Positions 2,385 through 60,092 of a stretch of 64,000 bases of DNA are shown here, in pieces. Within the stretch, counting starts at the first letter, position 1. Each line of letters opens with the position of its first letter. The stretch is taken from assembly GCA_019638015.1 (NCBI GenBank), contig JAHBUP010000001.1, positions 1,146,424 to 1,210,423 of the forward strand, given 5' to 3'. The position numbers and the translations under genes were made by a program. Origin of the DNA: Melioribacteraceae bacterium. Its GTDB lineage: Bacteria > Bacteroidota > Ignavibacteria > Ignavibacteriales > Melioribacteraceae. The notes beneath the pieces were generated by a model that made no database searches, was not told where the DNA came from, and saw nothing but the letters and a program-made list of their open reading frames with translations.

Positions 2385-2426
2385 GTGAGTGTTTGTGATT
2401 TACGTTAGAGATGTAGAGCCAATTGA

Positions 2427-2966
2427 GTGAGGAAAAATATGAGTCGGCTTAATTATTTATTATTGATGGTAATTTTAATAACTGTTGGATGTTCTTCAAC
2501 AAATTATCCACCATTGGATGTTGTGGATAAAGTTGATGTTAACAGATATCTCGGTAAATGGTATGAAATAGCACGCCTTCCATTCAAACAGCAAACCGGT
2601 TGTGAATGCACATCAGCTGAATATCAGTTAATAGATTCAACCACATTAAAAGTTATTAACAAGTGTTTGAAAGAGGGAGAAATTGATGACGCTGAAGGAA
2701 AAGCATTTGTAGTGGAAGGAAGCAACAATGCAAAATTGCGCGTTCAATTTTTTTGGCCATTTAGAGGAGATTATTGGGTTATTGATCTTGATGAAGAAAA
2801 TTACCAATACGCTGTGGTGGGAACACCAAGTAGAAAATATTTGTGGATTCTTTCTCGAATCCCGAAGATGGATGATAAATTATTTCAAAAGCTGATTGAT
2901 AATGCCAGTTCCAAGGGCTTCGATATGACCAAACTGGAAGTTACCAAACAAGGTTGTAACGATTAA
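2427..2966 (+). CDS. blc: Bacterial lipocalin (Blc-like outer membrane lipoprotein)
   Basis: Lipoprotein signal LITVGCSS, lipocalin motif RYLGKWYEIARLP, and later YLWILSR. The start is probably the ATG at 2439, which follows GAGGAAAAAT. Confidence 0.85.
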   Translation: MRKNMSRLNYLLLMVILITVGCSSTNYPPLDVVDKVDVNRYLGKWYEIARLPFKQQTGCECTSAEYQLIDSTTLKVINKCLKEGEIDDAEGKAFVVEGSNNAKLRVQFFWPFRGDYWVIDLDEENYQYAVVGTPSRKYLWILSRIPKMDDKLFQKLIDNASSKGFDMTKLEVTKQGCND

Positions 2967-3034
2967 TTATTTTTCTTTCTCTGTTACTCAAAAGCAGTTT
3001 ATGTTGCTGCTTCAGCATACCCCAAAAGGAAATT

Positions 3035-5625: not shown

Positions 5626-5633
5626 TTTGTCAC

Positions 5634-19155: not shown

Positions 19156-19157
19156 CA

Positions 19158-35880: not shown

Positions 35881-37044
35881 TTATCCAAGGAAAAATGATA
35901 ACAAAATACCGGCGGCAACAGCAGAACCAATAACACCGGCAACATTTGGCGCCATTGCATGCATTAGCAAATGGTTTTTAGGATCATACTGCAATCCTAT
36001 AACTTGGGATACCCGAGCGCTATCCGGAACCGCTGATACACCGGCGTTTCCAATTAAAGGATTTATTTTATTTTCATCTTTCAAAAATAAATTCATCAAC
36101 TTCACAAATAATACGCCCATGGTGGTTGCCACCATAAAAGATACCGCGCCCAATCCAAATATTCCAATAGATTTTGCCGTTAAAAATGTTGTGGCCTGGG
36201 TGGAAGCTCCAACTGTTAATCCTATTAATATTGTAACTATATCAATTAAAGAACCTTTTGCTGTATCGGCTAAACGCTTTGTTACGCCACTCTCTTTCAA
36301 AATATTTCCAAAAAACAACATTCCCAATAATGGAAGAGCTGAAGGTGTTATAAAAGTTGTTAATAACAAACCAACAATAGGGAATAGTATCTTTTCTAAT
36401 TTTGAAACTTGGCGAGGCGGTTTCATCTTTATAACACGCTCTTTATGAGTGGTTAGCAATTTCATAATTGGTGGTTGAATTACAGGTACTAATGCCATAT
36501 ATGAATATGCTGAAACCGCAATTGCGCCTACTAATTCGGGAGCTAGTTTGGATGATAAAAATATTGCAGTTGGACCATCGGCACCACCAATAATTCCAAT
36601 TGCTGCTGCTTGTTGAGGATCGTATCCTAAAGCAGTGGCTATTATGTAAGCTCCAAAGATACCAAACTGAGCCGCTGCTCCAATTAACATTAATTTTGGA
36701 TTGGAGAGCAGGGTAGAAAAATCTGTCATTGCCCCAATTCCTAAAAAGATTAATGGGGGATAGACACCTTGAGAAACTCCAAAATATAAATAGTTTAAAA
36801 CGCTTCCTTTCTCATAAATGCCAATTTGAAGCCCCGCATTCTCCAAAAAAGGTATGTTGCCAATTAGAATTCCAAATCCTATCGGTACTAAAAGTAATGG
36901 CTCATAATCTTTTGCAATTGCCAGATAAAGGAATATCAGCGCAACAATTATCATTATTAAGTGGCCAAGCGTAAAATTCGCGAATGCTGTGTAACGCATA
37001 AATTGGTCAAATCCATGAACAGTAAAATCAAGAAATTGCTGCAT
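35881..37044 (-). CDS. mmdB: Na+-translocating decarboxylase beta subunit (methylmalonyl-CoA/oxaloacetate decarboxylase)
   Basis: Polytopic 387-aa protein with OadB/MmdB-type segments ([25 protein letters not shown]). Last gene of the mmd operon. Confidence 0.9.
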
Positions 37045-37046
37045 AA

Positions 37047-37490
37047 TTAACCTCCTATCTGAATCAGAAGGTCGCCTTCCATAACAGAATCACCCTGTTT
37101 GACTTTAATTGAAGTGATTTTTCCTTCTTTATCTGCATTAACACTGTTTTCCATTTTCATTGCTTCAAGTGTTAATAATTTATCACCAATTTTTACAATA
37201 TCTCCCTCTTTAACATGAATATCAAGGATAACCCCAGGCAAAGGAGATTTCACATATCCAACCCCTTTTGCTTCGGTGGGCTTTGAAGTTTTTTGTTCCG
37301 ATTTTGCCATATCTGTTGACGGAGATACAACAGAACGAACCAATTTTGGCGTTTTTGTTTTTTGAATTTGTTTATCAACTTCAACTTGATATACGGTTCC
37401 GTTGACTTCAACTTCTACCATATTATCTTCTGTGTTCAATATCTCAACTGCGTATTGAGAGCCATTGATCGTAAACTTAAACTTTTTCAT
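37047..37490 (-). CDS. mmdC: Biotin carboxyl carrier subunit of the decarboxylase
   Basis: Biotinyl-lysine motif EAMKMEN in the C-terminal lipoyl-like domain. Confidence 0.88.
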
Positions 37491-37500
37491 TATTTCATCC

Positions 37501-37920
37501 TCATCTTGGAAATTGTCTTATACCGTAGATTTTTGAACTCCACGGTGAGTAAGTTCTTGCTACTCTATTAATTGTAAGCACCATATTTTCTTGGTCATGA
37601 ATCTCACTCATATACAAGTGAATTGCCATAGCAATTGCCGCGTTCACTTCGCCGGAAAGTTCTTCTTCATTTACCTTTATTTCTACCGTTTGACCTTCTC
37701 TCTTAATCGATCTCTTTAATTTTTGATTTAATAATTTAGTTATGTTAATGAATACTAAATAAAGTAACAGCAGAGAAAAAAATACAACTGCCATTCCAAC
37801 AAAAGTAATCCCTATTCCTATTGGATCAACTTGTGTAAATTTCTCGGCGTTTTGATGCATCTTAGAACTGGTTACGGAATCAACTTGAGCAGTAACTTGA
37901 GCTATTATTGCTAAATTCAT
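37501..37920 (-). CDS. Small membrane-anchor subunit (OadG/MmdD-like)
   Basis: Single TM FVGMAVVFFSLLLLYLVFINI as in the OadG family. Sits between the alpha and biotin-carrier genes. Confidence 0.55.
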   Translation of the reverse strand: MNLAIIAQVTAQVDSVTSSKMHQNAEKFTQVDPIGIGITFVGMAVVFFSLLLLYLVFINITKLLNQKLKRSIKREGQTVEIKVNEEELSGEVNAAIAMAIHLYMSEIHDQENMVLTINRVARTYSPWSSKIYGIRQFPR

Positions 37921-37927
37921 TTTTACC

Positions 37928-39487
37928 TCACAAAGGGATGTTTGAATGTTTCTTTGGAGGATTCACATCTTTCTTTGTTGCCAAAGATTGAAGTGCGCGA
38001 ATTACTCTGAACCTTGTATTCCTTGGTTCAATAACATCATCAATATAACCATATTTTGCGGCTGTATATGGAGTAGCAAATTTGCGCTTGTATTCTTCTT
38101 CTTTTTCACTAATGAATTTTATTCTTTCCTGCTCATCTTTAATTTCACTAATCTCTTTATTGTGAAGAACCTCTATAGCTCCGCGAGGACCCATAACCGC
38201 AATTTCAGCCATCGGCCAGGCATAATTAATATCTCCGCGCAAATGTTTCGATCCCATTACATCGTAAGCCCCGCCATATGCTTTTCTTAATATAACCGTA
38301 ATTTTTGGAACGGTTGCTTCCCCATAAGCAAATAATAGTTTAGCTCCATGCAGAATAATTCCACCATATTCTTGAGTAGTTCCGGGTAAAAATCCGGGAA
38401 CATCGACTAGTGTTAATATCGGAATATTGAATGCATCACAGAATCTAACAAATCTTCCGGCTTTTCTAGATGCGTTAATATCCAGCACACCGGCCAAGTA
38501 ATTTGGTTGATTGGCAACTATTCCAACTGAAACACCATTAAAACGTGCAAAACCAGTAATTATGTTTGGCGCGTAATGTCTCTGTATTTCTAAGAATTCA
38601 TGATAATCTGTAATTGCGTGAATAACATCTTTAACATCATAAGGTTTATTTGGACTTTCAGGAATAATTTCGTTCAATGAATCTTCAAGTCTATCGATAG
38701 GATCATCACACATTGCAAGTGGCGGATCTTCTAAATTATTTTGTGGAAGATAGCTAAGTATTTTTCTTATAAGTAGAATACCTTCCTGTTCATCGTCAGC
38801 CACGAAATGAGTTACACCCGATTTTGATCCATGAACCATTGCACCGCCAAGCTCTTCTTCAGTTACAGTCTCACCGGTAACAGTTTTAACTACTTTTGGA
38901 CCGGTAACAAACATATAGCTGGTGCCCTTAGTCATAATTGTAAAATCGGTTAGTGCAGGGGAGTAAACTGCACCGCCGGCGCAGGGTCCAAATATTGCCG
39001 AAATTTGTGGAATCACTCCGCTTGCCATAATATTTCTTTGAAATATTTCCGCATAACCGCCCAAACTTTTGACCCCTTCTTGTATTCTCGCACCGCCGCT
39101 ATCATTTATACCTATAACTGGAGCACCGACTTTCATTGCCTTATCCATTACTTTGCAAATCTTTTGGGCATACATTTCTGATAAGGAACCACCGAAGACT
39201 GTAAAGTCCTGCGAAAAAACATAAACTAGCCGTCCATCAATTGTACCGTAACCTGTAACAACACCATCTGACAAATATGTTTGCTTATCTAATCCAAAAT
39301 CTACAGTTCTATGCGATACGAACATATCGAATTCTTCAAAGCTGCCTTCATCGAGCAGCATATCTATACGTTCTCTTGCGGTATATTTTCCTTTTTGATG
39401 TTGCGACTCAATTCGTTTTTCACCGCCGCCTAGTCGCGCTTTTGCGCGCATATCCATTAACTCTTTGATCTTTCCACTGTGTGGCAT
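37928..39487 (-). CDS. mmdA: Methylmalonyl-CoA decarboxylase alpha subunit (carboxyltransferase, PccB/12S family)
   Basis: 519-aa acyl-CoA carboxyltransferase with the two crotonase-like halves and typical segments ([33 protein letters not shown]). Confidence 0.92.
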
Positions 39488-39496
39488 TTAACCTCC

Positions 39497-39520
39497 GTAA
39501 AATAGTGTAGAGTGATGAGC
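39497..39520 (+). repeat. Inverted copy (C) of the operon-internal repeat
   Basis: GTAAAATAGTGTAGAGTGATGAGC. Its reverse complement, CTCATCACTCTACACTATTTT, matches copies A and B apart from a 7-nt deletion and 1 mismatch. Confidence 0.8.
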
Positions 39521-39523
39521 TTG

Positions 39524-39537
39524 CCCGCCGCGGCGGG
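39524..39537. repeat. GC-only palindrome CCCGCCGCGGCGGG
   Basis: Perfect 14-nt palindrome in otherwise AT-rich DNA, 14 nt downstream of the four-helix-bundle gene stop. No U-tract follows it on the coding (minus) strand. Confidence 0.7.
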
Positions 39538-39550
39538 TAAAAGTATTGAG

Positions 39551-39949
39551 TTATAAACCTTTAGCAGTTTTGATGCTGCTGGTTAATATTCTTTCTAATT
39601 CATCACAGTCTTTAATTAAACTTTCGAATTCATTTTGATTTATTAATTCGGTCTCGAATAAAAGTTTTAACCAATATTCGGTTTCTCTGCATTCTTTTAA
39701 AGCAATTGTTAATTTATTGGCGAAATCATTTTTTGATGAAGCGCTTTGAGCTTCAGAAATATTAGCTCCGATTGATGTTCCGGATCTTAAAAGCTGTTTG
39801 TGAATTGGAATAAAAGTTAGATCATTTTTAAGAATGTACTTATAGAATTTTGTAATTCTAACAGAAAACTTAAATGCTTTCTGATATAAAATACTAGAAT
39901 AATATTCCTGCTTCTCATTAATCAAACTAAAATACTCTTCACTCATCAC
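39551..39949 (-). CDS. Four-helix-bundle protein (23S rRNA intervening-sequence protein / Avd-like family)
   Basis: Family hallmark SGTSIGANISEAQSASSKNDFANKLTIALKECRETEYWLKLL. About 130 aa. The start is GTG at 39949 or ATG at 39946. Confidence 0.85.
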   Translation of the reverse strand: MMSEEYFSLINEKQEYYSSILYQKAFKFSVRITKFYKYILKNDLTFIPIHKQLLRSGTSIGANISEAQSASSKNDFANKLTIALKECRETEYWLKLLFETELINQNEFESLIKDCDELERILTSSIKTAKGL

Positions 39950-39969
39950 TCTAAACTCTAAACTATTTT
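39937..39969 (-). repeat. Repeat copy B (epimerase / four-helix-bundle junction)
   Basis: Plus strand CTTCACTCATCACTCTAAACTCTAAACTATTTT. Matches copy A at 30 of 34 aligned positions. Contains the four-helix-bundle gene start and the epimerase stop. Confidence 0.8.
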
Positions 39970-40364
39970 CCGCACAATTCCGTTAAAACGCCGCCTGTAA
40001 ATTTTGGGTGAAGGAAACCGATATTTAATCCTTCGGCGCCTTTGCGGGGTTGTTTATCAATTAGTTGTATTCCTTTTGCTTCAACCTCTTTTAATGATTC
40101 GGCAAGATTATCAGTAGCAAATGCCAAATGATGAATTCCTTCCCCCTTCTTTTCAATAAACTTACCAATTGGTCCTTCGGGATCGGTAGATTCCAGCAAT
40201 TCAATTTTAGTTTGTCCAACCATAAAAAAAGCGGTTTTAACTTTTTGATCTGCAACTTCCTCAACTGCGTAACATTTAAATCCAAGCACATTTTCATAAT
40301 ATTTAATTGATTCTTCCAAATTTTTTACCGCAATTCCGATATGTTCTATATGTGTAATATTCAT
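39963..40364 (-). CDS. mce: Methylmalonyl-CoA epimerase (VOC/glyoxalase fold)
   Basis: IEHIGIAVKNLEESIKYY N-terminus, GEGIHHLAF, 133 aa, and operon context with the mutase and decarboxylase. Confidence 0.9.
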   Translation of the reverse strand: MNITHIEHIGIAVKNLEESIKYYENVLGFKCYAVEEVADQKVKTAFFMVGQTKIELLESTDPEGPIGKFIEKKGEGIHHLAFATDNLAESLKEVEAKGIQLIDKQPRKGAEGLNIGFLHPKFTGGVLTELCGK

Positions 40365-40385
40365 TTTAAGCTCCTTAATTAATTT

Positions 40386-40419
40386 CTACACTCATCACTC
40401 AACACTCTAAACTATTTTT
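40386..40419 (-). repeat. Repeat copy A (mutase / epimerase junction)
   Basis: Plus strand CTACACTCATCACTCAACACTCTAAACTATTTTT, immediately after the mutase stop. Confidence 0.8.
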
Positions 40420-42098
40420 CAGATTACCACATTTTCCTTGTACTCACCAAAGACATCTCTCATAACATTACAGATTTCGCCAATGCCTGCATAAGCTTTA
40501 ACGGCATCAAGAATAAAGGGCATCAAGTTAGCGTCCCCTTCTGCGGCAGTTTTAAGCGCGGCAAGTTTTTCTTTTACTACTTCATTATTTCTTTCAGAGC
40601 GAATTTTGTTAAGAAAAGCAATTTGTTCTTTTTGAACTTTTTCATCTATTCGTAAGAGTTCTCCTTTTGTTTCCTCTTTCTGAACAAACTTATTAACACC
40701 AACAACTACACTTTCTCCGCTTTCAAGTTGTTTATTGAATTGATATGCCGCTTTTTGAATTTCGAGTTGGACATAGCCGGCTTCAATCGCATTTGTAACG
40801 CCTCCCATAGCGTCAATTTTACTAATGTACTCTTCGGCTTCTTTTTCTATCTGATCAGTCAGAGCTTCAACGTAATAGGAGCCGGCGAGAGGATCTATAG
40901 TGTTTGCAACCCCGCTTTCATGAGCAACAATTTGTTGAGTGCGTAATGCAATTTTTACAGATTGTTCTGTAGGAAGAGCCAGCGCTTCATCACGTGAATT
41001 TGTGTGTAAGCTTTGAGTTCCACCAAGAACAGCGGCTAAAGTTTGAATGGTTACGCGTACTATATTATTATCAACTTGCTGAGCGGTTAATGTTGATCCG
41101 GCGGTTTGTGTATGAAAACGAAGCATCATCGATTTCTCTTTTTTAGCTCCGAATCTCTCTTTCATAATTTTAGCCCATAATCTTCTAGCGGCTCTATATT
41201 TAGCTACTTCTTCAAGAAGATCATTATGAGCATTAAAAAAGAATGATAATTGTCCCGCAAACTCATCGACATTTAATCCTGCGTCAATAGCGGCTTTTAC
41301 ATAGGCAATACCATCTGCAAGGGTAAATCCAACTTCCTGCGCCGCAGTTGAACCAGCTTCACGAATATGATAACCGGAAATTGAAATTGTATTCCACTTT
41401 GGTACTTCTTTTGCGCAGTATTCAAAAATATTTGTAATTAAACGCATCGAGGGTTTTGTGGGATAAATATATGTCCCGCGTGCTATATATTCCTTTAAGA
41501 TATCGTTTTGAATTGTGCCGGTAATTTTATCCGGGGTGACACCTTGCTTTTCAGCTACGGCAATGTACATTGCGAGGAGAACAGAAGCCGGAGCGTTAAT
41601 TGTCATTGAGGTAGAAACTTTATCTAATGGAATTTGATCGAATAATATTTCCATATCAGCAAGAGTATCAATAGCAACCCCAACTTTTCCAACTTCGCCA
41701 AGAGCCATAGGGTCATCGCTATCATATCCAATTTGGGTTGGGAGATCAAATGCTACCGATAATCCGCTTTGCCCTTGCGAAAGTAAATATCTGTATCGTT
41801 CATTAGATTCTTTAGCGGTTCCGAATCCGGCATATTGTCTCATTGTCCAGAATCTGCCCCGGTACATAGTTGGCTGAACTCCACGGGTAAATGGATATTG
41901 ACCAGGAAATCCTAGATTTTTATTGTAATCAGAGTCAGTATCGTTTGGGATGTAAATCGGTTTTACGTTTGTGAATGATTGTGTCTTAAATTCTTTTAAT
42001 CGTTCTGGAAATTTGGAAATGGATTTTTGGTAGATCGAACTATCCCAATTACTATAAGCCTCTTGAACTTTTGATTTAAGTGAATCTAAATCTTGCAT
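40419..42098 (-). CDS. Methylmalonyl-CoA mutase, catalytic (N-terminal, substrate-binding) subunit only
   Basis: MCM TIM-barrel segments ([50 protein letters not shown]). It ends at GEYKENVVI with no DxHxxG B12-binding domain. The ORF track extends to 42170, but the ATG at 42098 (MQDLDSLK) has an AAAGGA RBS. Confidence 0.9.
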
Positions 42099-50757: not shown

Positions 50758-51078
50758 TTATTTAGATAAAAAAGTATTTATTGCATCCTTCAATATTATT
50801 GTTGACTTAAAGCCATCAACTATTTTTATTCCACCTCTCTTAAGGGATTCCTCAGCTTTATCTCCAACATGACCGGTGAGTAAAACTTCAGCACCTTTAC
50901 TGATGATTAACTCGGCTGCTTTAGGCCCGGCACCGCTTTGCATTTGTTCGCCTAGATTTGATACAGCTTCAAACTTCATAGTATCAGAATCTACAATTAT
51001 AAAGTATTGGCAGCGCCCAAATTGTTCACTTACCAGCGCATTCATTGATCCGCCTGTTGATGTTATTGCAATTTTCAT
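50758..51078 (-). CDS. NifX/NafY/NifB-C-terminal-type (MTH1175-like) cofactor-binding domain protein, paralog 3
   Basis: MKIAITS...[13 protein letters not shown]...[11 protein letters not shown] pattern. Length 106 aa. Confidence 0.8.
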
Positions 51079-51968
51079 TTAGTAATTCCTTTTAAATTAT
51101 TTATTTGATTTGTAATATTTATCCAAATGTTCTCGACTTGCTTTCCAATCTCATGGTTGAATTCAATAATAGTTTTACCAAGCTGCAGTGAACTAACAAA
51201 ATCATGATGAAAGGGAAGGTAGCCCAAAATATTAATTTTATTCTCATCAGCTATATTTTTGATAATTCCGGTTACTTCTAAATTCAAATCAAACTTATTT
51301 ATGATAATACCATGCGCATATTTCATTGTCTTCAGCAGTTCGATTAGTCTTTTCAAATCATGTAATCCAGAAAGAGTTGGTTCAGTTACAATAACAACAA
51401 AGTCGGTACCGGAAAGACTGGCATTTACAGGACAACCGATTCCGGGCGGTCCATCAATAATTATCCACTCATTTGTTTCCGAAACATTATTGGATGCTGC
51501 CTTTTTTATTTCACTAACCAGTTTCCCAGAGTTACCTTCTCCCGGTAAAAGTTTTGCGTAAAAAAACTTGGATTTATCTACCAGTAAACCGGAATAAAAA
51601 TCTCCCGACTTATGGTAATCGAATGAAATTGCTTGTTCGGGACAAACCCTCACACAGAATCCACAGCCTTCACAGCTGATCGTAACGACTTTATAATTTT
51701 TTATAGCCTCAAATCTGCAGACCTCCTCACATAATCCACACTCGCGGCAATTATCAGAATTTATAACAGCTTTTTTCCCGCCATAGAATTCATACCCCCC
51801 TTCTATTTGTGGTTTTAATAACAGAAATAAATTTGCGGCATCAACGTCGCAATCAACAACAATTTTGTTTTTTATCAATTTAGAAATAGAAGCGGTAAAA
51901 GTAGTTTTACCAGTTCCACCTTTACCGCTTAAAACAAGTACTTGAGAATAATTTTGAATTTTATTCAC
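51075..51968 (-). CDS. MinD/ParA/CooC-like P-loop ATPase with inserted 2x[4Fe-4S] ferredoxin domain, paralog 2
   Basis: Deviant Walker A SGKGGTGKTT, CRECGLCEEVCRFEA and CEGCGFCVRVCPEQA, Walker B IIDGPPG. Confidence 0.85.
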   Translation of the reverse strand: MNKIQNYSQVLVLSGKGGTGKTTFTASISKLIKNKIVVDCDVDAANLFLLLKPQIEGGYEFYGGKKAVINSDNCRECGLCEEVCRFEAIKNYKVVTISCEGCGFCVRVCPEQAISFDYHKSGDFYSGLLVDKSKFFYAKLLPGEGNSGKLVSEIKKAASNNVSETNEWIIIDGPPGIGCPVNASLSGTDFVVIVTEPTLSGLHDLKRLIELLKTMKYAHGIIINKFDLNLEVTGIIKNIADENKINILGYLPFHHDFVSSLQLGKTIIEFNHEIGKQVENIWINITNQINNLKGITK

Positions 51969-51980
51969 AGTTTAATTACT

Positions 51981-52697
51981 CTATTCTTTTATAATTGATT
52001 TAAGAACTTTTTCTTTATCTAATTTTTTAGAACAGAAGAACCAATCCTGGCAAACCAAATCATCTTTACCTTCCATTCTTTCTTTTGCGGCGCCGCAAGA
52101 ACCGGCAGGAGAAATAATCACATCGTCACCAGGTTGCCAGTCAGCAGGAGTAGCAACTGAAAAGTTATCAGCGGTTTGAAGTGCAATAACTACTCGATAC
52201 AGTTCATCAAAATTTCTGCCGAGGCTTAGTGGATAATAAATTATCGTTCTGATAATACCTTTAGGATCAATTACAAAAACCGCTCTTACTGCTTTTGTAG
52301 AACTTTCACCAGGCTGAATCATTCCATATTTTGTAGCAATTTCCATTGTGATGTCTTCAATTAAAGGGAAGTTAACTTCAACATTTTTCATCCCCTTATA
52401 TTCAATTTTTTCTTTGATTGTTCTTAACCATGCGATGTGACTATATATTCCGTCTATTGATAAACCAACCAGCTTGCAATTGGCTTTTAAAAATTTATCC
52501 TCTAGATATGCGAATGTTATGAATTCGGAAGTACAAACCGGAGTAAAATCTGCGGGGTGGCTAAAAAGTATTACCCAACTACCGGCGTACTGTTCAGGAA
52601 AGTTGATATCACCTTGTGTTGTTACAGCTTTGAAGTCTGGCGCCTTTTCACCGATGCGAGGCATAGATTGAACTTGAGATCCCATATTGTTTTCCAT
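51981..52697 (-). CDS. Peroxiredoxin, Prx6/archaeal-type with C-terminal extension
   Basis: Peroxidatic Cys context FSHPADFTPVCTSEF. C-terminal Cys residues SCGAAKER...CQDWFFC. Confidence 0.92.
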   Translation of the reverse strand: MENNMGSQVQSMPRIGEKAPDFKAVTTQGDINFPEQYAGSWVILFSHPADFTPVCTSEFITFAYLEDKFLKANCKLVGLSIDGIYSHIAWLRTIKEKIEYKGMKNVEVNFPLIEDITMEIATKYGMIQPGESSTKAVRAVFVIDPKGIIRTIIYYPLSLGRNFDELYRVVIALQTADNFSVATPADWQPGDDVIISPAGSCGAAKERMEGKDDLVCQDWFFCSKKLDKEKVLKSIIKE

Positions 52698-52757
52698 TTC
52701 CTACTCCTTTTTAATTTAATTAGATATTGTTTTTTGTACTGCAACTATTGTGTGAAT

Positions 52758-53576
52758 CTACTTCACAATGTTTTTGAATTCTTCATTCATTTTTGTTAAG
52801 AATATTGATGGCATTTCTCCATTTGAATAATCTACCGCGATCCCTTTATCGAACGGAATTTTCATCAAAATATTTATTCTCTGTTCATTTAAATAATTTT
52901 CAAGATCCGTGTAAGATTTTTCATATTTATTTATTACAACGCCATATGGAATTTTTAGAACTTGCAAAACTTCAATTGCGAGATTCAAATCATGCAATCC
53001 AAATGGACTGGATTCAGTGACGAGTATGCAAAAATCAGAATCTTTTACCGCCTCAACCATCGAACAAGAAGTTCCTGGAGGAGAATCAATAATATTCAAT
53101 TTATCTGGTTGAATATTTTTTTTAACATCCTTAATCACCGGCGAAGCCGAAGCTTCACCCACATTTAATACCCCATCATAAAACTTTATATTGTTCCATG
53201 CAGAGAATCCTTCTCTAACTACTCCAATCTTTTTCTTTACTTCACTGATTGCTTTTTCGGGGCATAAATATTCACACGTACCACATGCATGACAGAGTTC
53301 ATCGATAAGCAATATTTCCGAACCCAAATTAATTAATGCATGAAACTCACAAACTTGCGCACATTTACCGCAAGTATTGCATTTGGAATAATCAATCCTT
53401 GGAAGACTCTTTGTCGATGGAGCTTCCTTATGAAATTGAGGATGGAGTAGAATATGTCCGTTTGGTTCTTCTACATCACAATCGATGTAAACACTTCCGT
53501 GATTAACAAATGCTAGACTTGTCGCAATCGTAGTTTTACCTGTTCCTCCTTTGCCCGATGCGATAGATATTATCAA
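52758..53576 (-). CDS. MinD/ParA/CooC-like P-loop ATPase with inserted 2x[4Fe-4S] ferredoxin domain, paralog 1
   Basis: SGKGGTGKTT, CNTCGKCAQVCEFHA and CHACGTCEYLCPEKA, IIDSPPG. Confidence 0.85.
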   Translation of the reverse strand: MIISIASGKGGTGKTTIATSLAFVNHGSVYIDCDVEEPNGHILLHPQFHKEAPSTKSLPRIDYSKCNTCGKCAQVCEFHALINLGSEILLIDELCHACGTCEYLCPEKAISEVKKKIGVVREGFSAWNNIKFYDGVLNVGEASASPVIKDVKKNIQPDKLNIIDSPPGTSCSMVEAVKDSDFCILVTESSPFGLHDLNLAIEVLQVLKIPYGVVINKYEKSYTDLENYLNEQRINILMKIPFDKGIAVDYSNGEMPSIFLTKMNEEFKNIVK

Positions 53577-53585
53577 TTCAATTCC

Positions 53586-53972
53586 TTAATGACAATTGTG
53601 ACTATGATTATGATCATGTTTACATGCCTCGTAACCATTAAGTTTACCTTGTAAAAAACTAGTTATCGCTTCTTCAAAAAGAAGTCCCGGTGCTGTTATT
53701 ATGTCAATTCCGAATGACAAAAAATTTGAAACTGCTTTTTGTCCCATTCCGCCTGCAATAATTGTATTTACATTGAATTGTTTTACATATCCAGGCAGCT
53801 GGCAAGCTCCGCTGTGTTCACCAACTAAGGGATTAAAAAATGTTTCGGTCTTGTGAATTTGATTTTGTTCATCTAGTTCGCAAACATAAAATTTTGAACA
53901 TCTTCCAAAATGTTCCGCTACTCTTTCTTCAGCACCGCTTTCTTCAATTGCAACAGCTATTCTTTGATTCAT
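53586..53972 (-). CDS. NifX-like (MTH1175-like) domain protein, paralog 2, with His/Cys-rich tail
   Basis: RIAVAIEE...EHFGRCSKFYVCE...TIIAGGMG, then the C-terminal tail ACKHDHNHSHNCH. Confidence 0.8.
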   Translation of the reverse strand: MNQRIAVAIEESGAEERVAEHFGRCSKFYVCELDEQNQIHKTETFFNPLVGEHSGACQLPGYVKQFNVNTIIAGGMGQKAVSNFLSFGIDIITAPGLLFEEAITSFLQGKLNGYEACKHDHNHSHNCH

Positions 53973-53994
53973 ATTTCTTCCTATATATTTTTAA

Positions 53995-54414
53995 TTAATG
54001 TCGTTTACCGTGTCTCTCTCTATTCCTACCTGAGAAATGCTTCTTATTTATAAAATCTATTTGCTCTATTTTTTCTTCCTTAACTAAGTGGATAGCTTTG
54101 TGGGCATTTCCGTCTTTGTAATGATAAACTTTTATGTTAGCCGATGTAAAAAACCTATAAGGATTTATACCAATCTTTTTAACTATTACAGCATCAACGT
54201 TTTTTTCAATAAGAAATCTTACTGATTGTATCCCTACTCCACCCAATTCGTTTGCGAACGGGTTAGAAATAATTTCTTCCGAATCATCTTCTGTATTGTG
54301 AATCAAGAAGAATTTACTTCTTCCAAAAATTTCAGAAATAGGAGATGATTTTTCTGGTTTCTCTATCGCAACGGCTATTTTTCCTGCTATGCGTGATTTC
54401 GACTCATTCAACAT
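53995..54414 (-). CDS. NifX-like (MTH1175-like) domain protein, paralog 1, with basic tail
   Basis: KIAVAIEK...EIFGRSKFFLIHN...VDAVIVKKIG, then the tail GRNRERHGKRH. Confidence 0.65.
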   Translation of the reverse strand: MLNESKSRIAGKIAVAIEKPEKSSPISEIFGRSKFFLIHNTEDDSEEIISNPFANELGGVGIQSVRFLIEKNVDAVIVKKIGINPYRFFTSANIKVYHYKDGNAHKAIHLVKEEKIEQIDFINKKHFSGRNRERHGKRH

Positions 54415-54417
54415 TTA

Positions 54418-54645
54418 TTATTTCTTTCCAAATCCTCTTCCGCGACCTCTTCCTTGGCCTTTTCCTGCTCCTCCGCCGCCGCGAGGTTTTCCACCGTGCC
54501 CAAGTCCCGATACTACATTTGCGCTATCAGTTGCTTTTTCTGTTGTTTTATCAGGTTGATTTTTTTGAGTACTCGAACAGCGCCCTTTCCCTCTTCCGGT
54601 CATTGCGCCTTGTCCTTGTGGACCAGTTCCATTTAAGTTTGGCAT
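54418..54645 (-). CDS. DUF5320-like small Gly/Arg-rich protein
   Basis: N-terminus MPNLNGTGPQGQGAMTGRGKGRC matches my memory of the DUF5320 signature (MPxxDGTGPxGxGPxTGRGxGxC). The C-terminus is an RGG-type low-complexity run. Confidence 0.7.
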   Translation of the reverse strand: MPNLNGTGPQGQGAMTGRGKGRCSSTQKNQPDKTTEKATDSANVVSGLGHGGKPRGGGGAGKGQGRGRGRGFGKK

Positions 54646-54675
54646 AGTGTCTCCTCTTTTATGAATTTTAATTGT

Positions 54676-55122
54676 TCAATCATATGAAAGTCTTATATCT
54701 TTGTTTGTTAGTATTGGTTCAATAATTTCTTTCAATTTTTTAGATCCCCATGTTTTTAATTCGGAATGTGTAAGAAAATATTTTTCCGGAATCGGGTGAG
54801 TACCAACTACCACGTTCATCCCATATTTTGATTCTATAAACTTTTTAAAGTGATCGATGTATGGGCAAGGAGGGTAACCCACAACCATTCCGGTTGCAAA
54901 GTGAATAACTTCAGCGCCATTCTTCTTTAATTCCTCAGGTGCGTATTCAATATTGCCGCCGGGGCAGCCACCGCAAGTGGTGTAACCGATAAGTTCAACA
55001 TCATTTTCTTTATAAATATCAAACGCACCAACTCTTTCTTTTATAGATCTAAAACACTTACCCCCCGCACAGCTTTTGTATCTGTCGCAAATTATAATTC
55101 CAATTTTAATTTTATCTTTCAT
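54676..55122 (-). CDS. CGGC-domain protein
   Basis: Eponymous TTCGGCPGG motif plus additional conserved Cys residues (CDRYKSCAGGKC, PPCPY). Length 148 aa. Confidence 0.8.
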   Translation of the reverse strand: MKDKIKIGIIICDRYKSCAGGKCFRSIKERVGAFDIYKENDVELIGYTTCGGCPGGNIEYAPEELKKNGAEVIHFATGMVVGYPPCPYIDHFKKFIESKYGMNVVVGTHPIPEKYFLTHSELKTWGSKKLKEIIEPILTNKDIRLSYD

Positions 55123-55137
55123 GAAAATTATCCCATC

Positions 55138-55968
55138 TTATTTAGCTATTAATTCAACTTGATAATGCTGTTCAATTGAATTTGCTATTGATTTAAACAC
55201 ATTTGTCACTTCACAATTAGGTTTTTCAAGAACGATTGGTTTACCGTTATCGCCCAGAATGCGCGCATCAATATCAATTGGGATAGAGCCGAGAAAAGGT
55301 AAATTATATTTTTTGGCCAGTTTTTCACCACCGCCAACCCCAAATATTTCAACCACCGCATTACAACGAGGGCATATAAATCCCGCCATATTCTCTATTA
55401 TACCTATAAATGGAATTTCTAATTTTTTCGCCATATCTATCGCACGTTCGGCGTCGATAACCGAGACTTCCTGCGGAGTAGTTACAATAACTGCGTAATC
55501 GGGTTTCATCTGCTGCGCTATTGTTAAAATTTCATCACCGGTTCCGGGAGGTAAATCAGCAATCAGATAATCAAGCTCGCCCCATTCAACATCGGCAAGA
55601 AACTGGTTAATTACTTTTGAGCGCATGGGCCCACGCCAAATCAATGCTTGTCCGTCTTTTAATAAACTTGCCATCGAAATCATTTTAGCTCCATATTTTT
55701 CAAACGGAATCATTTTAGAATCTAGTATAATTAACTCATTATCGATCCCTAGCATTTTAGGAACATTTGGACCGGTAATATCCGCATCAAGAATACCGGT
55801 TGAATAGCCCTCTGTTTGTAAAGCATAAGCAAGGTTCACACTAACAGTAGTTTTACCAACACCCCCTTTGCCACTAAAGACTGCGATACGGTGTTTTATC
55901 TTTGCTACATTTTCTACTATTCTTTTTTCTTCTTCTTCAAGTGCTTTTTGTTTTTCTTGATTGTCCAT
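55138..55968 (-). CDS. mrp: Mrp/NBP35/ApbC family Fe-S cluster carrier ATPase
   Basis: Deviant Walker A SGKGGVGKTT, DLPPGTGD, and the cluster-bridging CPRC motif (GFICPRCN). Confidence 0.92.
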   Translation of the reverse strand: MDNQEKQKALEEEEKRIVENVAKIKHRIAVFSGKGGVGKTTVSVNLAYALQTEGYSTGILDADITGPNVPKMLGIDNELIILDSKMIPFEKYGAKMISMASLLKDGQALIWRGPMRSKVINQFLADVEWGELDYLIADLPPGTGDEILTIAQQMKPDYAVIVTTPQEVSVIDAERAIDMAKKLEIPFIGIIENMAGFICPRCNAVVEIFGVGGGEKLAKKYNLPFLGSIPIDIDARILGDNGKPIVLEKPNCEVTNVFKSIANSIEQHYQVELIAK

Positions 55969-56080
55969 TAGTTACCCTTATGTATTATGTTAATTTATAT
56001 ACTATGCTACCCACTGATCTGTTCATGCAAATTCTTATTTCAATTTTTAACACATTTACCCTACTAAGTCTTTCTTAAAA

Positions 56081-57139
56081 CTAAATTGTTAAACCGCTAC
56101 CAGCCGTCTGATAAGTATTGTCAATTGCATAAAATATTTCTCTGTTGTGAATGACTTTTTTAACAGTTCGGCTTAGAAGCAAATTTTGCAGAACTTGTTG
56201 ATCTTTTTCGTTTTTTAAGAACTGATTAACCGCGTCAACTCTGACCGGATGGAGAGCTAGCAAACCTAACAACTCATTTTCAAAATCATCAGTCGCGAAA
56301 AATTCTTCAGTCTCGGGACAACATAACATTGTTGATTTTTTAATTTTACTTTTAATCAATTTCGATAATTGTTGTAGAGTTTCGGCCTCAGGACATTCTG
56401 CATAGCTTTCTGCCGGAGGATATCGTGGCGTCATAAAATATGATTGATCGTATTTTAGTGTGCTGAAGAATTGATATAGCTGTTCAATTTCTTCAGCGTT
56501 ATCATTAATGTTTTTAATCAGCATTGTCTCGGTGGTAAGTATTCCCTGATAATAATTTGAGAACCGTTTAATTCCTTCAAGTATCTTGTTGTAATCTAAT
56601 CTGCGGTGTGGTCTATTTAACCTTAACCAGGTTCCCTCGTTCACTGTATCTATTTTGAGGGAGACATAATCGGCATACATTAGATTTTCCTGGATGTTAT
56701 CTTTCCACAACAGGGAAGAATTTGTGAAAACAGCAATCTTGTAGCCGAATTCACGAAGAAGTAAAATTTCTGACGGAAGATTTGCATCAAGAGTCGGAGC
56801 CCCGCTTCCTGCAAAAACTATGTAGTCAATTTTTTCCCCATGTTCTTCCAATTCCGACAATTTTTTTCTAACTGACAAATGAAGTTCGTAAGGGGATAAG
56901 CAATTTGTTGAACAAATGGAGCAACATGATGTATCTCCTGATGGACAATAGATGCAGTTGTATGAGCAGGTTTTTGATTTTAAATTGTTTATTCCAAGGA
57001 CGGAGCCTAATCTTCTTGATCTGACAGGTCCAAATACCACATGACATTTCAATGATTTGTTAGAGAGTATGCCACTTTCCAATTTTACGCAAATTGACTC
57101 AACTCGCTCTTTAAACCAAGATTTCACTCCATCCTTCAT
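56081..57139 (-). CDS. Radical SAM protein (family with N-terminal GPVxSRRLG motif), function unknown
   Basis: FGPVRSRRLGSVLGINN, then the CX3CX2C motif CSYNCIYC, followed closely by a second Cys run CCSICSTNC. AAGGAG RBS 10 nt upstream of the ATG. Confidence 0.85.
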   Translation of the reverse strand: MKDGVKSWFKERVESICVKLESGILSNKSLKCHVVFGPVRSRRLGSVLGINNLKSKTCSYNCIYCPSGDTSCCSICSTNCLSPYELHLSVRKKLSELEEHGEKIDYIVFAGSGAPTLDANLPSEILLLREFGYKIAVFTNSSLLWKDNIQENLMYADYVSLKIDTVNEGTWLRLNRPHRRLDYNKILEGIKRFSNYYQGILTTETMLIKNINDNAEEIEQLYQFFSTLKYDQSYFMTPRYPPAESYAECPEAETLQQLSKLIKSKIKKSTMLCCPETEEFFATDDFENELLGLLALHPVRVDAVNQFLKNEKDQQVLQNLLLSRTVKKVIHNREIFYAIDNTYQTAGSGLTI

Positions 57140-57170
57140 GATCAGAAAACTCCTTGCAAAATTTAGCTAT

Positions 57171-57186
57171 GCTGTAATATTACCAT
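57171..57186 (-). promoter_or_regulatory. Candidate sigma-54 (-24/-12) promoter of the radical SAM operon
   Basis: Minus strand ATGGTAATATTACAGC (TGGTAATATTACAGCA if the flanking base 57170 is included). GG and GC are separated by exactly 10 nt, about 32 nt upstream of the ATG. Only about 7 of 11 core consensus positions match TGGCAC-N5-TTGCA. Confidence 0.3.
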
Positions 57187-57247
57187 AATCGTTCCAATCA
57201 AATAGTTCGATTATTGCGCTAATTGTTATTTTCTGATGCGCAATGCT

Positions 57248-57310
57248 TTGCATATTTGCTATGATGATTGCAAGGATATTGCATGAATGCAACTATCTGT
57301 CTATTTTGCA
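57248..57310. promoter_or_regulatory. Cluster of TTGCA/TGCAA half-sites (candidate activator UAS)
   Basis: TTGCA at 57248, 57268, 57279 and 57306. TGCAA at 57269 and 57288. Includes TGCAAGGATATTGCA (57269-57283) and the palindrome TTGCATGAATGCAA (57279-57292). Confidence 0.35.
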
Positions 57311-57330
57311 TACAAGTTTTGAGGTAAGCA

Positions 57331-59064
57331 ATGAGCGAAGTACAAAAGATTATAGATAAAAATAAAGAAGCGGTTATCATTCCGGATGGAATTGCGGTAA
57401 TCGGCAAAGATTTAAAATTAATTGTTTTTAATGAAGCCGCTTCTCGAATCACATTTTATGAAGAAGATGAAATTATTGGTCTTGATTGCACTATTCTTTT
57501 CTCTGAATGTTTGCATGAGCTAAAATTTGTTTCAGAATCATTAATGAATAATCGCACGTTTACAAATCTGGCAATTAACATTACCGACAAAAGAGGAAAT
57601 GTTAAAAATGTACTCGCATCAATTACTCCTATAACAAAAGATGACTCCGTCTTGAGTGTGGTTTTTGTCTTTCGTGATACTAAAGAGATGCTTTCCTTAT
57701 CCGATGAACTAGAGGAGAGAACATCGGAACTTATTGATCAAAAGAACAAATTGGATGCAATCTTTAACAGCAATATTGAGGGAACGTTTACAATCGATAA
57801 TGATTGGAATGTTACTTCATTTAATAATTCGGCGGAAAAGATTACTGGATATAAAAAATCCGAAGCTGTAGGTAAAAAATGCTGGGATATATTTAATTCC
57901 TCTTTATGCCGGAATGGTTGTCATATGGAACAGACCATTCGAAAAGGAAAACCAATGATTGGAAACGAACTCGAAATTCTGCATAAAGGAGGTAAGAAAA
58001 TTCCAATCCGCCTGAATTCCGGAATTCTGATTAATAATAGAAAAGAAAATATTGGAGCGGTTGAAACATTTATTGATATATCGGAAATCAGAAATTTATC
58101 TGAGCATCTAAATGAATTTTTTAAGTATGAAAATATAGTTGGTAGAAATAAAGAGATCACCCAAATATTCTCGGTGCTTGAAAGCGTGGCACAAACCGAT
58201 TCATCGGTTTTAATTACCGGAGAGAGTGGAACCGGTAAAGAGTTGGCCGCAAGGGCAATTCATTTAAATAGTTCAAGGAGAACAGGCCCCTTTATTGCCG
58301 TTAATTGCAGCGCGTTCGTTGAATCACTAATTGAAAGTGAATTATTTGGACATGAAAAGGGAGCTTTTACCGGAGCAATTAAAACAAAGATTGGACGGTT
58401 CGAATTGGCACAAGGGGGAACTTTATTTTTGGATGAGATTGGTGATCTATCTATTGCCGTTCAAACAAAATTATTAAGGGTTCTAGAGACTCGTGAGTTT
58501 GAACGAGTGGGTGGAAATAAATCTATTAAAATGGAAACAAGAATAATAGCCGCGACCAACAAGAATTTTAATGAAGAAATTTCAGCGGGTAGATTTCGAG
58601 AAGATCTCTTTTATAGAATAAATGTGATTAATATTCATTTGCCACCTCTTAGAGAAAGAATGGATGATCTTCCACTACTCGTAAATCATTTTATTCAAAG
58701 TTTTAACAAAAAATTCAATAAGAATATTAAACAGTTTTCATCCAATGCTTATGATATTTTAATGGAATACGATTGGGCGGGAAATATTCGGGAATTGGAA
58801 AATGTTATTGAGCATTGTTTTGTATTATGCAATAGTGACATAATTCAAGTTGAGTGTCTTCCAAAAAGATTAAGAGAAGCTGAAAGAAATAAGATTTCTA
58901 GGAAAAATGCCGATCCTCCAACAGGATTTTCCGAAGTCGAAAAAGGATTTATAATTTCAGTATTAGAAAAAAATAATTGGAATAGAACAAACGCGGCTAA
59001 GGAATTAAAGATCGACACATCAACGTTGTGGCGAAAAATGAAAAAATTCAAAATTCTACGATAA
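57331..59064 (+). CDS. Sigma-54-dependent transcriptional activator (PAS-PAS-AAA+-HTH)
   Basis: Two N-terminal PAS-like modules, Walker A GESGTGKE, sigma-54 contact loop GAFTGA ([15 protein letters not shown]), and a C-terminal Fis-type HTH. Confidence 0.93.
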
Positions 59065-59219: not shown

Positions 59220-60092
59220 ATGAACAGAAGAGACTTCATTAAAATTAGTTCGCTGGCGGGAAGCGCCCTCGCAATTTCACCCATGCCGCTATTTATGGCT
59301 GATAATGTAAATAAAAAGTATGCTAACGATATTGTAACTCTTGGGAAAACGGGTATCAAAGTTTCACGATTAGCAATGGGAACCGGTACCCACGGAATTA
59401 ACAGAACTTCAAATCAATCGAGAAAGCTTGGAGTTAAAGGACTGGCAGATTTGCTGAATATTGCATTTGATAAAGGAATAAATTTCTGGGATTCCGCTGA
59501 TCAGTATGGAACTCATCCACACTTAAAAGAAGCGTTAAAAAATATTCAACGAGATAAAGTAGTAATATTATCAAAAACCCATGCAACAACCGAAAAGGAA
59601 ATGAGAGATGATCTTGACCGTTTTCGTAAAGAAATTGGAACAGACTACATTGATATAATTCTTCTACATTTTATGACCGATCCTAAATGGCCGGAAAAGA
59701 AAAAGGGTGCTATGGAAATTTTGGCTAAAGCTCGTGAGGAAGGTATAATTCGAGCTCATGGAGTTTCCTGCCACTCACTTGGAGCATTGGAAGCCGCAGC
59801 AAATTCGGATTGGGTACAGATTGATCTTGCCCGTATAAATCCATTTGGTGCTTCAATGGATGCCGATGTACCGACGGTGGAAAAAATTCTTAAAAGAATG
59901 CATGCTGATGGAAAAGGTATTGTTGGTATGAAAATTTTTGGCGGAGGACAATTAGTTAATAAAGTTGATGAGTGTTTGAAATATGTACTAAAACAAGATT
60001 TTGTTGATGCTTTTACAATCGGGCAGGAGAATCAAGCTCAACTTGAAGATTTATTGGTAAGAATTCCGGCGGTAAGCATATCTAAAAATTAA
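59220..60092 (+). CDS. Aldo/keto reductase with twin-arginine (Tat) signal peptide
   Basis: N-terminus MNRRDFIKISSLAGSALAISP is a Tat consensus (S/T-RRxFLK-like). AKR core segments (FWDSADQYG, ILLHF). Confidence 0.85.
   Translation: MNRRDFIKISSLAGSALAISPMPLFMADNVNKKYANDIVTLGKTGIKVSRLAMGTGTHGINRTSNQSRKLGVKGLADLLNIAFDKGINFWDSADQYGTHPHLKEALKNIQRDKVVILSKTHATTEKEMRDDLDRFRKEIGTDYIDIILLHFMTDPKWPEKKKGAMEILAKAREEGIIRAHGVSCHSLGALEAAANSDWVQIDLARINPFGASMDADVPTVEKILKRMHADGKGIVGMKIFGGGQLVNKVDECLKYVLKQDFVDAFTIGQENQAQLEDLLVRIPAVSISKN

Follow-up and report, generated by a model that had tools for sequence, protein, structure and literature searches.

The closest described counterpart of the gene cluster analysed here, a minus-strand cluster with a divergent sigma-54 activator gene in a 64-kb stretch of DNA (hereafter the window) from a Melioribacteraceae-like Ignavibacteria bacterium (Bacteroidota/Chlorobi group), is the orp system of Desulfovibrio. 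DVU2103-DVU2109 of D. vulgaris comprise the operons for the ORange Protein (ORP) complex and the gene of their sigma-54 activator OrpR, DVU2106 (PMC8359166, PMC6345978, PMC3897727, PMC4641369). A five-protein ORP complex has been published for Desulfovibrio, the MrpORP carrier passes iron-sulfur (Fe-S) clusters to Orp3-Orp4-Orp8 in vitro, the OrpR regulon consists of the orp operons only, and loss of OrpR causes a cell-morphology defect in Desulfovibrio. Regulation of the Desulfovibrio orp cluster is separate, and the cluster has no relation to nif (PMC8359166). In the OrpR paper, on D. vulgaris Hildenborough, the PAS pattern C52/C61/C65 with D/E54 was tied to a redox-sensitive [4Fe-4S] cluster; OrpR is active at low potential and inactivated by oxidation (PMC8359166), its sites overlap its own promoter region, and according to the same 2021 paper it is apparently restricted to Deltaproteobacteria. 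A further described protein, IssA of Pyrococcus furiosus, combines an IPR003731 domain with a cationic Gly-rich tail and stores thioferrate, and MTH1175 has been placed in the IssA clade (PMC5524996).

We interpret the window cluster as an orp-type operon under an OrpR-type activator, a reading to which we give a probability of roughly 0.7. The window system is a variant of the described ORP system, from which it differs by its phylum, an extra PAS domain in the activator, a single operon, a split MrpORP, four added gene families and an optional MinD/ORP module. The original prediction, made from the window sequence alone, had pointed to a similar gene set around DVU2103-DVU2109, and this proved correct, DVU2106 being OrpR (PMC8359166, PMC6345978, PMC4641369); its description of the module as uncharacterised, with a role not defined, was overstated, the Desulfovibrio homologue having been studied since 2011.

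Ten co-directional minus-strand open reading frames (ORFs) run from 57139 down to 50758 (Table 1), and their junctions measure, in order, 112, 15, 30, 3, 22, 9, 60 and 12 nt, followed by a 4-nt overlap. In total, about 38 window ORFs were scanned, and the Pfam domain calls for the ten genes all exceed the gathering scores. All coordinates and junctions that had been proposed for the ten genes were reproduced in the ORF table, every domain call was matched by Pfam, and the divergent PAS-PAS-AAA+ sigma-54 activator with a Fis-type helix-turn-helix was recovered with its Pfam domains (Sigma54_activat 239 bits, AAA_lid_14 98 bits, HTH_8 47 bits, two PAS) and with both its GESGTGKE and GAFTGA motifs. 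The claim that the window holds no nif, hydrogenase or carbon monoxide dehydrogenase (CODH) structural gene also stood, none being found among the scanned ORFs. The proposed gene set was correct for the ten genes and incomplete at its distal end, where three further co-directional genes had been left out. The proteins are identical and the ten-gene order is the same in three independent public assemblies, so that the arrangement is no assembly artefact; the order also occurs in a Melioribacteraceae metagenome-assembled genome (MAG) whose activator is 86% identical.

Table 1. Features of the window cluster, its regulatory spacer and its downstream neighbours, in order from the activator gene.
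Feature	Coordinates	Strand	Characteristics
OrpR-type sigma-54 enhancer-binding protein (EBP), 577 aa	57331-59064	+	PAS1; PAS2 with C184-x8-C193-x3-C197 (D186); AAA+ with GAFTGA; HTH_8
Candidate upstream activating sequence (UAS)	57237-57310		TGCA-core half-site array, 21-94 nt upstream of the activator start codon
Sigma-54-type -24/-12 box	57181-57196	-	TGGAACGATTATGGTA; GG at 57195-57194, G at 57183; the C of the -12 element is T
Alternative GG-N10-GC box	57170-57185	-	TGGTAATATTACAGCA; 11 nt downstream of the conserved box, window-specific
Radical SAM protein of an unnamed family, 352 aa	56081-57139	-	C58-x3-C62-x2-C65; CxxCxxxC at 73-80; CC at 289-290
Mrp/NBP35 Fe-S carrier ATPase, 276 aa	55138-55968	-	GKGGVGKTT, CPRC; P-loop half of MrpORP (Orp9)
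CGGC-domain protein, 148 aa	54676-55122	-	Pfam CGGC, 107.1 bits
DUF5320 Gly/Arg-rich cationic protein, 75 aa	54418-54645	-	One Cys; Pfam 35 bits
NifX-like protein XA, 139 aa	53995-54414	-	TM1290/MTH1175 type; short basic tail; Nitro_FeMo-Co 68.6 bits
NifX-like protein XB, 128 aa	53586-53972	-	TM1816 type; Cys/His-rich C-terminus; Di-Nase half of MrpORP
First MinD/ParA-like ATPase, 272 aa	52758-53576	-	CbiA and two Fer4 (two 4Fe-4S ferredoxin motifs); Orp3/Orp4 class
1-Cys (Prx6-type) peroxiredoxin, 238 aa	51981-52697	-	AhpC-TSA and 1-cysPrx_C
Second MinD/ParA-like ATPase, 297 aa	51075-51968	-	CbiA and two Fer4 (two ferredoxin motifs)
Orange protein (ORP/Orp8) homologue, 106 aa	50758-51078	-	Single Nitro_FeMo-Co domain; PDB 2WFB
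PvlArgDC (pyruvoyl arginine decarboxylase)	50199-50744	-	Pfam
Metallo-beta-lactamase (MBL)-fold protein	49421-50143	-	Pfam
ArsP_2 permease	48514-49353	-	Pfam

For the comparison with Deltaproteobacteria, the D. gigas ORP sequence served to fetch two reference loci, one of Desulfovibrio sp. X2 and one of a Syntrophobacteraceae MAG, each of which has a PAS-sigma-54 activator gene next to ORP, a pair of MinD-ferredoxins and another NifX-like gene. The window activator is 40-45% identical to the EBPs of these loci over 430-440 residues. C184, C193 and C197, with D or E at +2, are invariant across the five proteins of an alignment (A1) of the window activator with deltaproteobacterial OrpR-like EBPs. 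The 120 best relatives listed, named Melioribacteraceae, Ignavibacteriaceae or Ignavibacteriales, are 77-86% identical to the window activator (79% for Ignavibacterium album JCM 16511). The three Cys of PAS2 are visible in 117 of these 120, the region of the remaining three not being displayed, and the +2 residue is N or S rather than D/E in some of the Ignavibacteria homologues. A scan of the genome collection with the whole activator was dominated by matches to the generic AAA+ peptide FGHEKGAF, with one true orthologue among the matches listed, and its other 79 loci were used as negative controls. Only 9 of the 91 EBPs in the control loci carry the Cys motif, and all nine are Ignavibacteria orthologues or EBPs of deltaproteobacterial loci. 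Additionally, a comparison with PAS2 on its own gives 77-112 bits for most Cys-motif EBPs but no more than 34 bits for any other PAS-EBP; the weakest motif-bearing EBP, from Syntrophaceae (L030), reaches only 22.8 bits.

The window activator shares with OrpR the order PAS-AAA+-HTH_8, the pattern C-x-[DE]-x6-C-x3-C in the sensory PAS, a position beside its presumed targets and upstream sites that overlap its own promoter region. It differs by an extra N-terminal PAS (residues 1-134) without conserved Cys, by GAFTGA or GSFTGA where OrpR has GAFTDA, by a conserved His right after the third Cys, and by upstream sites of the TGCAAT-repeat type instead of the GGGCGYRTTTTGCGCCC of OrpR. Judged from its sequence, it extends the OrpR family from Deltaproteobacteria to Ignavibacteria. 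A separate observation concerns a deltaproteobacterial MAG (L012) with two EBPs that carry the OrpR Cys motif, at 2266-3657 (-) and 5626-7035 (+); no orp-type gene was found in the 17 kb fetched around them, and the Fe-S PAS activator family may therefore control other targets too.

Homologues of the core ORP genes are found in the window as well. The best NCBIfam match of the Mrp protein (Pfam ParA/NUBPL, 325.8 bits) is the MrpORP model NF041136, aligned at positions 2-251 with 310.8 bits as compared with 269.9 bits for ApbC, and the protein shares 41% identity with the Mrp from the Syntrophobacteraceae orp locus. XB matches positions 266-365 of the same model (62.8 bits; Pfam Nitro_FeMo-Co, 57.7 bits), finds PDB entry 1T3V at 3.8e-14, and has as its best blastp match the NifX gene located after the MinD pair in the deltaproteobacterial loci. 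As Mrp covers the P-loop part and XB the Di-Nase part of NF041136, MrpORP is split here, with both halves present. The two MinD-ferredoxins correspond individually to the deltaproteobacterial paralogues: the first is 42% and 36% identical to the first paralogue and 27-29% to the second, whereas the second is 38% identical to the second paralogue and 27-30% to the first. The last of the ten genes encodes an ORP homologue (Nitro_FeMo-Co, 66.7 bits) whose best PDB match is the D. gigas ORP 2WFB (2.6e-17, residues 2-104) and which shares 40-42% identity with the ORPs encoded in the deltaproteobacterial loci.

The activator and the cluster are separated by a divergent spacer of 191 nt (57140-57330). 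A sigma-54-type -24/-12 box lies 42 nt upstream of the radical SAM ATG; its conserved form, TGGAAC-N5-TAGCA in most of 20 aligned orthologous spacers, appears in the window as TGGAACGATTATGGTA. In 18 of 28 non-redundant orthologous spacers the box stands in one and the same alignment column, as compared with an average of 0.07 and at most 2 in 2000 shuffles, and TGGAACGATTATGGTA is one of only two matches in the whole window. The sigma-54 link that had been proposed for the cluster is upheld by this conserved box and by the invariant divergent synteny with the activator. An alternative box, TGGTAATATTACAGCA, was ranked second, since the closest relative, L006, does not share it. Nearer to the activator, an array of half-sites (TGCAAA, TTGCAT-N-ATGCAAT, TTGCAAT, TGCAAA and ATTGCG/TGCGCA) overlaps the activator's own promoter region; its TGCA density is nine times the window mean, the 100-nt stretches with the highest density in the entire 64 kb are located here, and in the alignment the array holds its position in orthologous spacers. 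The -24/-12 boxes and the half-sites would function as promoter and UAS, respectively, and the array at 57237-57310 is presumably bound by the activator. Similar -24/-12 boxes, TGGCATGCTCCCTGCT and TGGAACGAGTATTGCT, were found in two deltaproteobacterial orp loci, the latter upstream of the NifU_N gene of the Syntrophobacteraceae locus; the Desulfovibrio sp. X2 locus carries short palindromes, GACGCA-N3-TGCGTC among them. Between UAS and promoter, no good match to the integration host factor (IHF) site WATCARNNNNTTR was seen by eye.

No internal promoter was recognised in the 112-nt and 60-nt gaps, which by inspection contain neither a -24/-12 box nor a TGCAAT array, and a sigma-70 scan remained at the shuffle level (47 matches, 46.7 expected). 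The three additional downstream genes lie on the same strand after gaps of 13, 55 and 67 nt. No terminator-like site was found on the minus strand in the spacers between 57139 and 48514, the sole one on that strand lying inside the ArsP_2 gene. Given the short gaps and the absence of a terminator in the spacers, the transcription unit may exceed ten genes, and the PvlArgDC, MBL-fold and ArsP_2 genes are possibly co-transcribed with the cluster.

A metagenome scan with the N-terminal 260 residues of the activator yielded 42 orthologous loci, which were annotated by means of phmmer searches with the window proteins. Wherever the flank of an Ignavibacteria locus is readable, cluster and activator are divergently oriented, and the cluster is modular in content. 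Families were counted in the 22 loci whose flank on the divergent side extends 7.5 kb or more from the activator, and the counts are lower bounds, as distal genes often fall off the flank. NifX-like genes were present on that side in 19 of the 22; in the remaining three the fetched flank ends before the cluster does. XA and XB were each found in at least 16 loci, DUF5320 and CGGC each in at least 14, the first radical SAM in at least 11, a second radical SAM that is absent from the window in at least 15, and Mrp in at least 13. The corresponding minimum numbers are 8-9 for MinD-ferredoxin, 7 for ORP, 5 for the peroxiredoxin and 8 for PvlArgDC. The peroxiredoxin gene takes the window-equivalent position in four loci and lies elsewhere in the cluster in a fifth, and PvlArgDC closes the cluster in eight, regardless of the preceding gene.

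Other Ignavibacteria versions add an octahaem cytochrome c, a DUF89 phosphatase, a disulfide oxidoreductase, a PNPOx-like protein, TrmO and Cys/Met-metabolising pyridoxal phosphate (PLP) enzymes. In several of them, a multihaem cytochrome c of about 450 aa (Cytochrome_cB, about eight CxxCH, signal peptide) is encoded between the CGGC and Mrp genes (L097 6491-7846, L090 5329-6696 and L118 6331-7701, all on the minus strand). The clusters at L090 (2995-3972) and L118 (8626-9807), again on the minus strand, include a PALP enzyme of the cysteine-synthase type or a PLP lyase of Cys/Met metabolism, which could supply sulfide for cluster synthesis. On the other flank of the I. album activator (L001, 11744-16946, -) lie genes for a major facilitator superfamily (MFS) transporter, a further Nitro_FeMo-Co protein and two ATP-binding cassette (ABC) exporter genes; a similar ABC exporter pair occurs in the window at 17332-20945, far from the cluster.

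The radical SAM protein (Pfam Radical_SAM, 58.8 bits) belongs to a family with 295 representatives at E ≤ 1e-30; its CxxCxxxC at 73-80 is semi-conserved. No named family or function could be assigned: the protein and 42 diverse relatives gave only weak generic NCBIfam matches (viperin, W-maturase, MoaA, TYW1), the protein reached no NifB, HydE/G or other maturase model, and none of the 42 relatives matched a NifB model. A PDB sequence search returned one marginal match, and Foldseek with the AlphaFold2 model (pLDDT 92.6) found generic radical SAM folds, NifB included, at a TM score of about 0.5 and 14-17% identity. Relatives at 34-38% identity adjoin Nitro_FeMo-Co, CbiA/ParA-like, 1-Cys Prx and DUF134 genes in three of four unrelated contigs, so that the link between radical SAM and NifX-like proteins is not confined to the activator-linked class.

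Six Cys (12, 18, 23, 50, 53, 86) and three His (74, 109, 119) of the CGGC protein are invariant in its alignment (A3). Its AlphaFold2 model (pLDDT 85.9) has a predicted alpha/beta fold and gave no PDB match better than E 2.6e-3. The peroxiredoxin scores 330 bits with NF009668, for which the cutoff is 211. The DUF5320 gene, which ends 3 nt upstream of the XA gene, occurs together with NifX-like genes in 14 of the 22 loci. The orp operon of Desulfovibrio sp. X2 contains a compositionally similar Gly/Arg-rich ORF of 112 aa and a 168-aa ORF with a sub-threshold Nitro_FeMo-Co match and a Gly/Arg tail. XA matches 1RDU (2.7e-14) and 1EO1, which is MTH1175 (8.5e-12), and has a tail of about 20 residues. 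Its MTH1175-type IPR003731 domain and the cationic, Gly/Arg-rich, single-Cys DUF5320 protein encoded beside it recall the two parts of IssA; here, however, domain and 'tail' are separate proteins, the tail of XA is short, and the likeness, to IssA as described, is a lead and not a finding. Apart from the IssA paper, reached through MTH1175, our search of the literature on DUF5320, the CGGC domain and Ignavibacterium with orange protein gave nothing specific.

Set beside the D. vulgaris orp genes (DVU2103-2105 and DVU2107-2109), the window cluster has in common a pair of paralogous MinD-like ATPases that both carry two 4Fe-4S ferredoxin motifs, a single-domain NifX-like orange protein, an MrpORP-type Mrp/NBP35 carrier with further Di-Nase domains, an adjacent cognate PAS-sigma-54 activator with a -24/-12 promoter, and the anaerobic lifestyle of the hosts. 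It forms a single long operon, whereas in D. vulgaris two divergent three-gene operons flank the regulator; its MrpORP is divided between two genes; the radical SAM, CGGC, DUF5320 and 1-Cys peroxiredoxin genes are extra; and the host belongs to Ignavibacteria, in sister lineages of which the MinD/ORP part is optional. The D. vulgaris type is further defined by a physical complex of its proteins and by an ORP that binds a Mo-Cu-S cluster, features that the window proteins may share. With FeMo-cofactor assembly by NifB, NifX and NafY, the cluster shares a radical SAM protein, NifX-type carriers and NifH-like (SIMIBI) P-loop ATPases. It differs in that nifHDK, nifEN and nifB are absent from the window, in that its radical SAM protein comes from another, unnamed family, and in that its NifX-like proteins are of the TM1290, TM1816, MTH1175 and ORP types.

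The originally proposed role, the assembly, carriage or repair of a complex metallocluster for a client, is a hypothesis here as it is for Desulfovibrio. The three-Cys motif of PAS2 corresponds to the [4Fe-4S]-binding motif of Desulfovibrio OrpR, and if the window system behaves as that of D. vulgaris does, oxidation of a PAS cluster would switch the activator off. By the same analogy, Mrp would load Fe-S clusters onto the MinD-ferredoxin pair, and the pair would form complexes with the NifX-like proteins. The presence of the radical SAM, CGGC and DUF5320 proteins and of the MTH1175-type XA suggests that an Fe-S-based species may be made, held or stored on the NifX-like carriers, and the putative function of the 1-Cys peroxiredoxin may be to shield oxygen-labile cluster proteins.

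It is necessary to set out what weighs against an orp-type operon under an OrpR-type activator. The direction of redox control is borrowed from D. vulgaris only, and the extra PAS1 could alter the signal. On the DNA side, the -12 element reads GT rather than GC in the window and its closest relative, inspection of 57140-57330 revealed no copy of the published OrpR palindrome, and rpoN was not seen within the window. The Mrp score lies below the MrpORP cutoff of 450 bits, and the protein does not fit the fused two-domain definition of MrpORP, because the Di-Nase domain is a separate gene here. No equivalent of Orp5, the small [2Fe-2S] protein, was identified, the unassigned small ORFs of the two deltaproteobacterial loci matching no window protein. 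Finally, several Ignavibacteria, among them I. album (L001) and L107, L099, L102, L111 and L119, have neither the MinD-ferredoxin pair nor ORP in the activator-linked cluster. Since I. album and several other loci also lack Mrp and retain the radical SAM, CGGC, DUF5320 and NifX-like genes, the regulon of the class is not simply the ORP complex.

The last point leads to the first of the alternatives, an island centred on the NifX-like proteins in which iron-sulfur species are synthesised in a radical-SAM-dependent manner or stored in an IssA-like (thioferrate-type) form on NifX-like carriers, with DUF5320 as a detached cationic Gly/Arg tail and the MinD-ferredoxin/ORP/Mrp part as an optional add-on. 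XA, XB, DUF5320, CGGC and one or two radical SAMs do stay with the activator where the MinD-ferredoxin pair and ORP are often missing, and the neighbours of the distant radical SAM relatives, the match of XA to an IssA-clade member, the 3-nt distance between the DUF5320 and XA genes and the appearance of NifB among the top Foldseek matches all agree with this view. Foldseek, however, fails to separate NifB from pyruvate formate-lyase activating enzyme (PFL-AE), TYW1, RlmN and viperin, and NCBIfam adds no NifB match; the extra Cys of the radical SAM protein are conserved only within the class, and not strictly; the XA tail has only about 20 residues, and DUF5320 is likened to the IssA tail by description; and the window itself holds the complete set of Mrp, MinD-ferredoxin pair and ORP. 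We consider this explanation unlikely. A bolder reading, in which OrpR-type Fe-S PAS activators control, well beyond Deltaproteobacteria, a modular low-potential island whose core of radical SAM, NifX-like carriers, CGGC and DUF5320 builds or stores complex iron-sulfur species (NifB-co- or thioferrate-like) without nitrogenase, and of which the ORP complex is one optional output module, is quite doubtful and is put forward as speculation.

The peroxiredoxin gene inside the operon raises the question of an oxidative-stress or redox-defence island in a facultative anaerobe, with an activator that is on when oxidised and products that repair or replace damaged Fe-S enzymes. Another peroxiredoxin lies near a distant radical SAM relative, other versions of the cluster add a pyridine-nucleotide disulfide oxidoreductase, a PNPOx-like flavoprotein and a DUF89 damage-control phosphatase, cytochrome bd oxidase genes are located about 8 kb away in I. 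album, and PAS1 could invert or widen the signal. Yet the sole experimental precedent, OrpR with the same Cys motif, works in the opposite direction (PMC8359166), the peroxiredoxin occurs in only 5 of the 22 loci, and most of the products are themselves oxygen-labile Fe-S proteins; we regard this possibility as very unlikely. Hardly credible is an accessory role in nitrogenase, hydrogenase or CODH maturation with the structural genes outside the window: NifX-type domains and P-loop ATPases like CooC and NifH belong to the classic maturation repertoire, and the region beyond 64000 lies outside the sequence read, but no such gene occurs in the 50 kb upstream or the 5 kb downstream, nor within 10 kb to either side in I. 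album or in the other loci with Pfam or phmmer annotation, the radical SAM protein reaches no maturase model, and the Desulfovibrio counterpart is independent of nif (PMC8359166). The nitrogenase-accessory version was rejected, with no nif family among the scanned window ORFs and no NifB-model match for the radical SAM protein. An orp-type operon under an OrpR-type activator remains the preferred interpretation.

The window has a G+C content of about 35%, and Rfam detected one tRNA only. Twenty further large ORFs are of a housekeeping or unrelated nature (leucyl- and seryl-tRNA synthetases, phosphoenolpyruvate carboxykinase, peptidases, ABC exporters, a hybrid kinase, a Crp-type regulator, and a methylmalonyl-CoA mutase/decarboxylase block). 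The latter, at 35881-42170 (-), with an OAD_beta Na+-translocating decarboxylase beta subunit, a carboxyltransferase and methylmalonyl-CoA mutase, resembles a module for propionate-type fermentation and sodium pumping. The Crp/Fnr-type regulator (cNMP_binding and HTH_Crp_2; 47083-47745, +) lies just past the distal end of the cluster and has the same neighbour position in the independent assembly L132. The hybrid sensor kinase (28066-31461, +) is a 1131-aa protein with several PAS domains, HisKA, HATPase_c and a receiver. Beyond the activator, an aldo/keto reductase (Aldo_ket_red, 84 bits; 59220-60092, +) begins with a twin-arginine-like signal, MNRRDFIKISSLAGSALA, which suggests export, unusual for this family. 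At 44338-46991 (+), a DUF6029 gene is followed by that of an Omp28-like protein that ends in a type IX secretion sorting tail, a pair that fits a host of the Bacteroidota group.

Anaerobes conserve the ORP system, which is linked to their way of life and has been the subject of fifteen years of work on Desulfovibrio. The present gain is incremental and concerns a niche field; the system is not of a new kind, and the value of the locus lies mainly in comparative clues. These are that the ORP system and its Fe-S redox-sensing activator are not confined to Deltaproteobacteria; that the 77-86% identity of the 120 best listed Ignavibacteria activators and the constant position of the activator next to the genes, in every locus with a readable flank, point to strong constraint; and that new partners have appeared in the form of a radical SAM family, CGGC, DUF5320 and the peroxiredoxin. 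Sister lineages with and without the MinD/ORP part amount to a natural dissection of the system, and the cultivable Ignavibacterium album and Melioribacter roseus offer a second, facultatively anaerobic and tractable host group for the old question of what it does.

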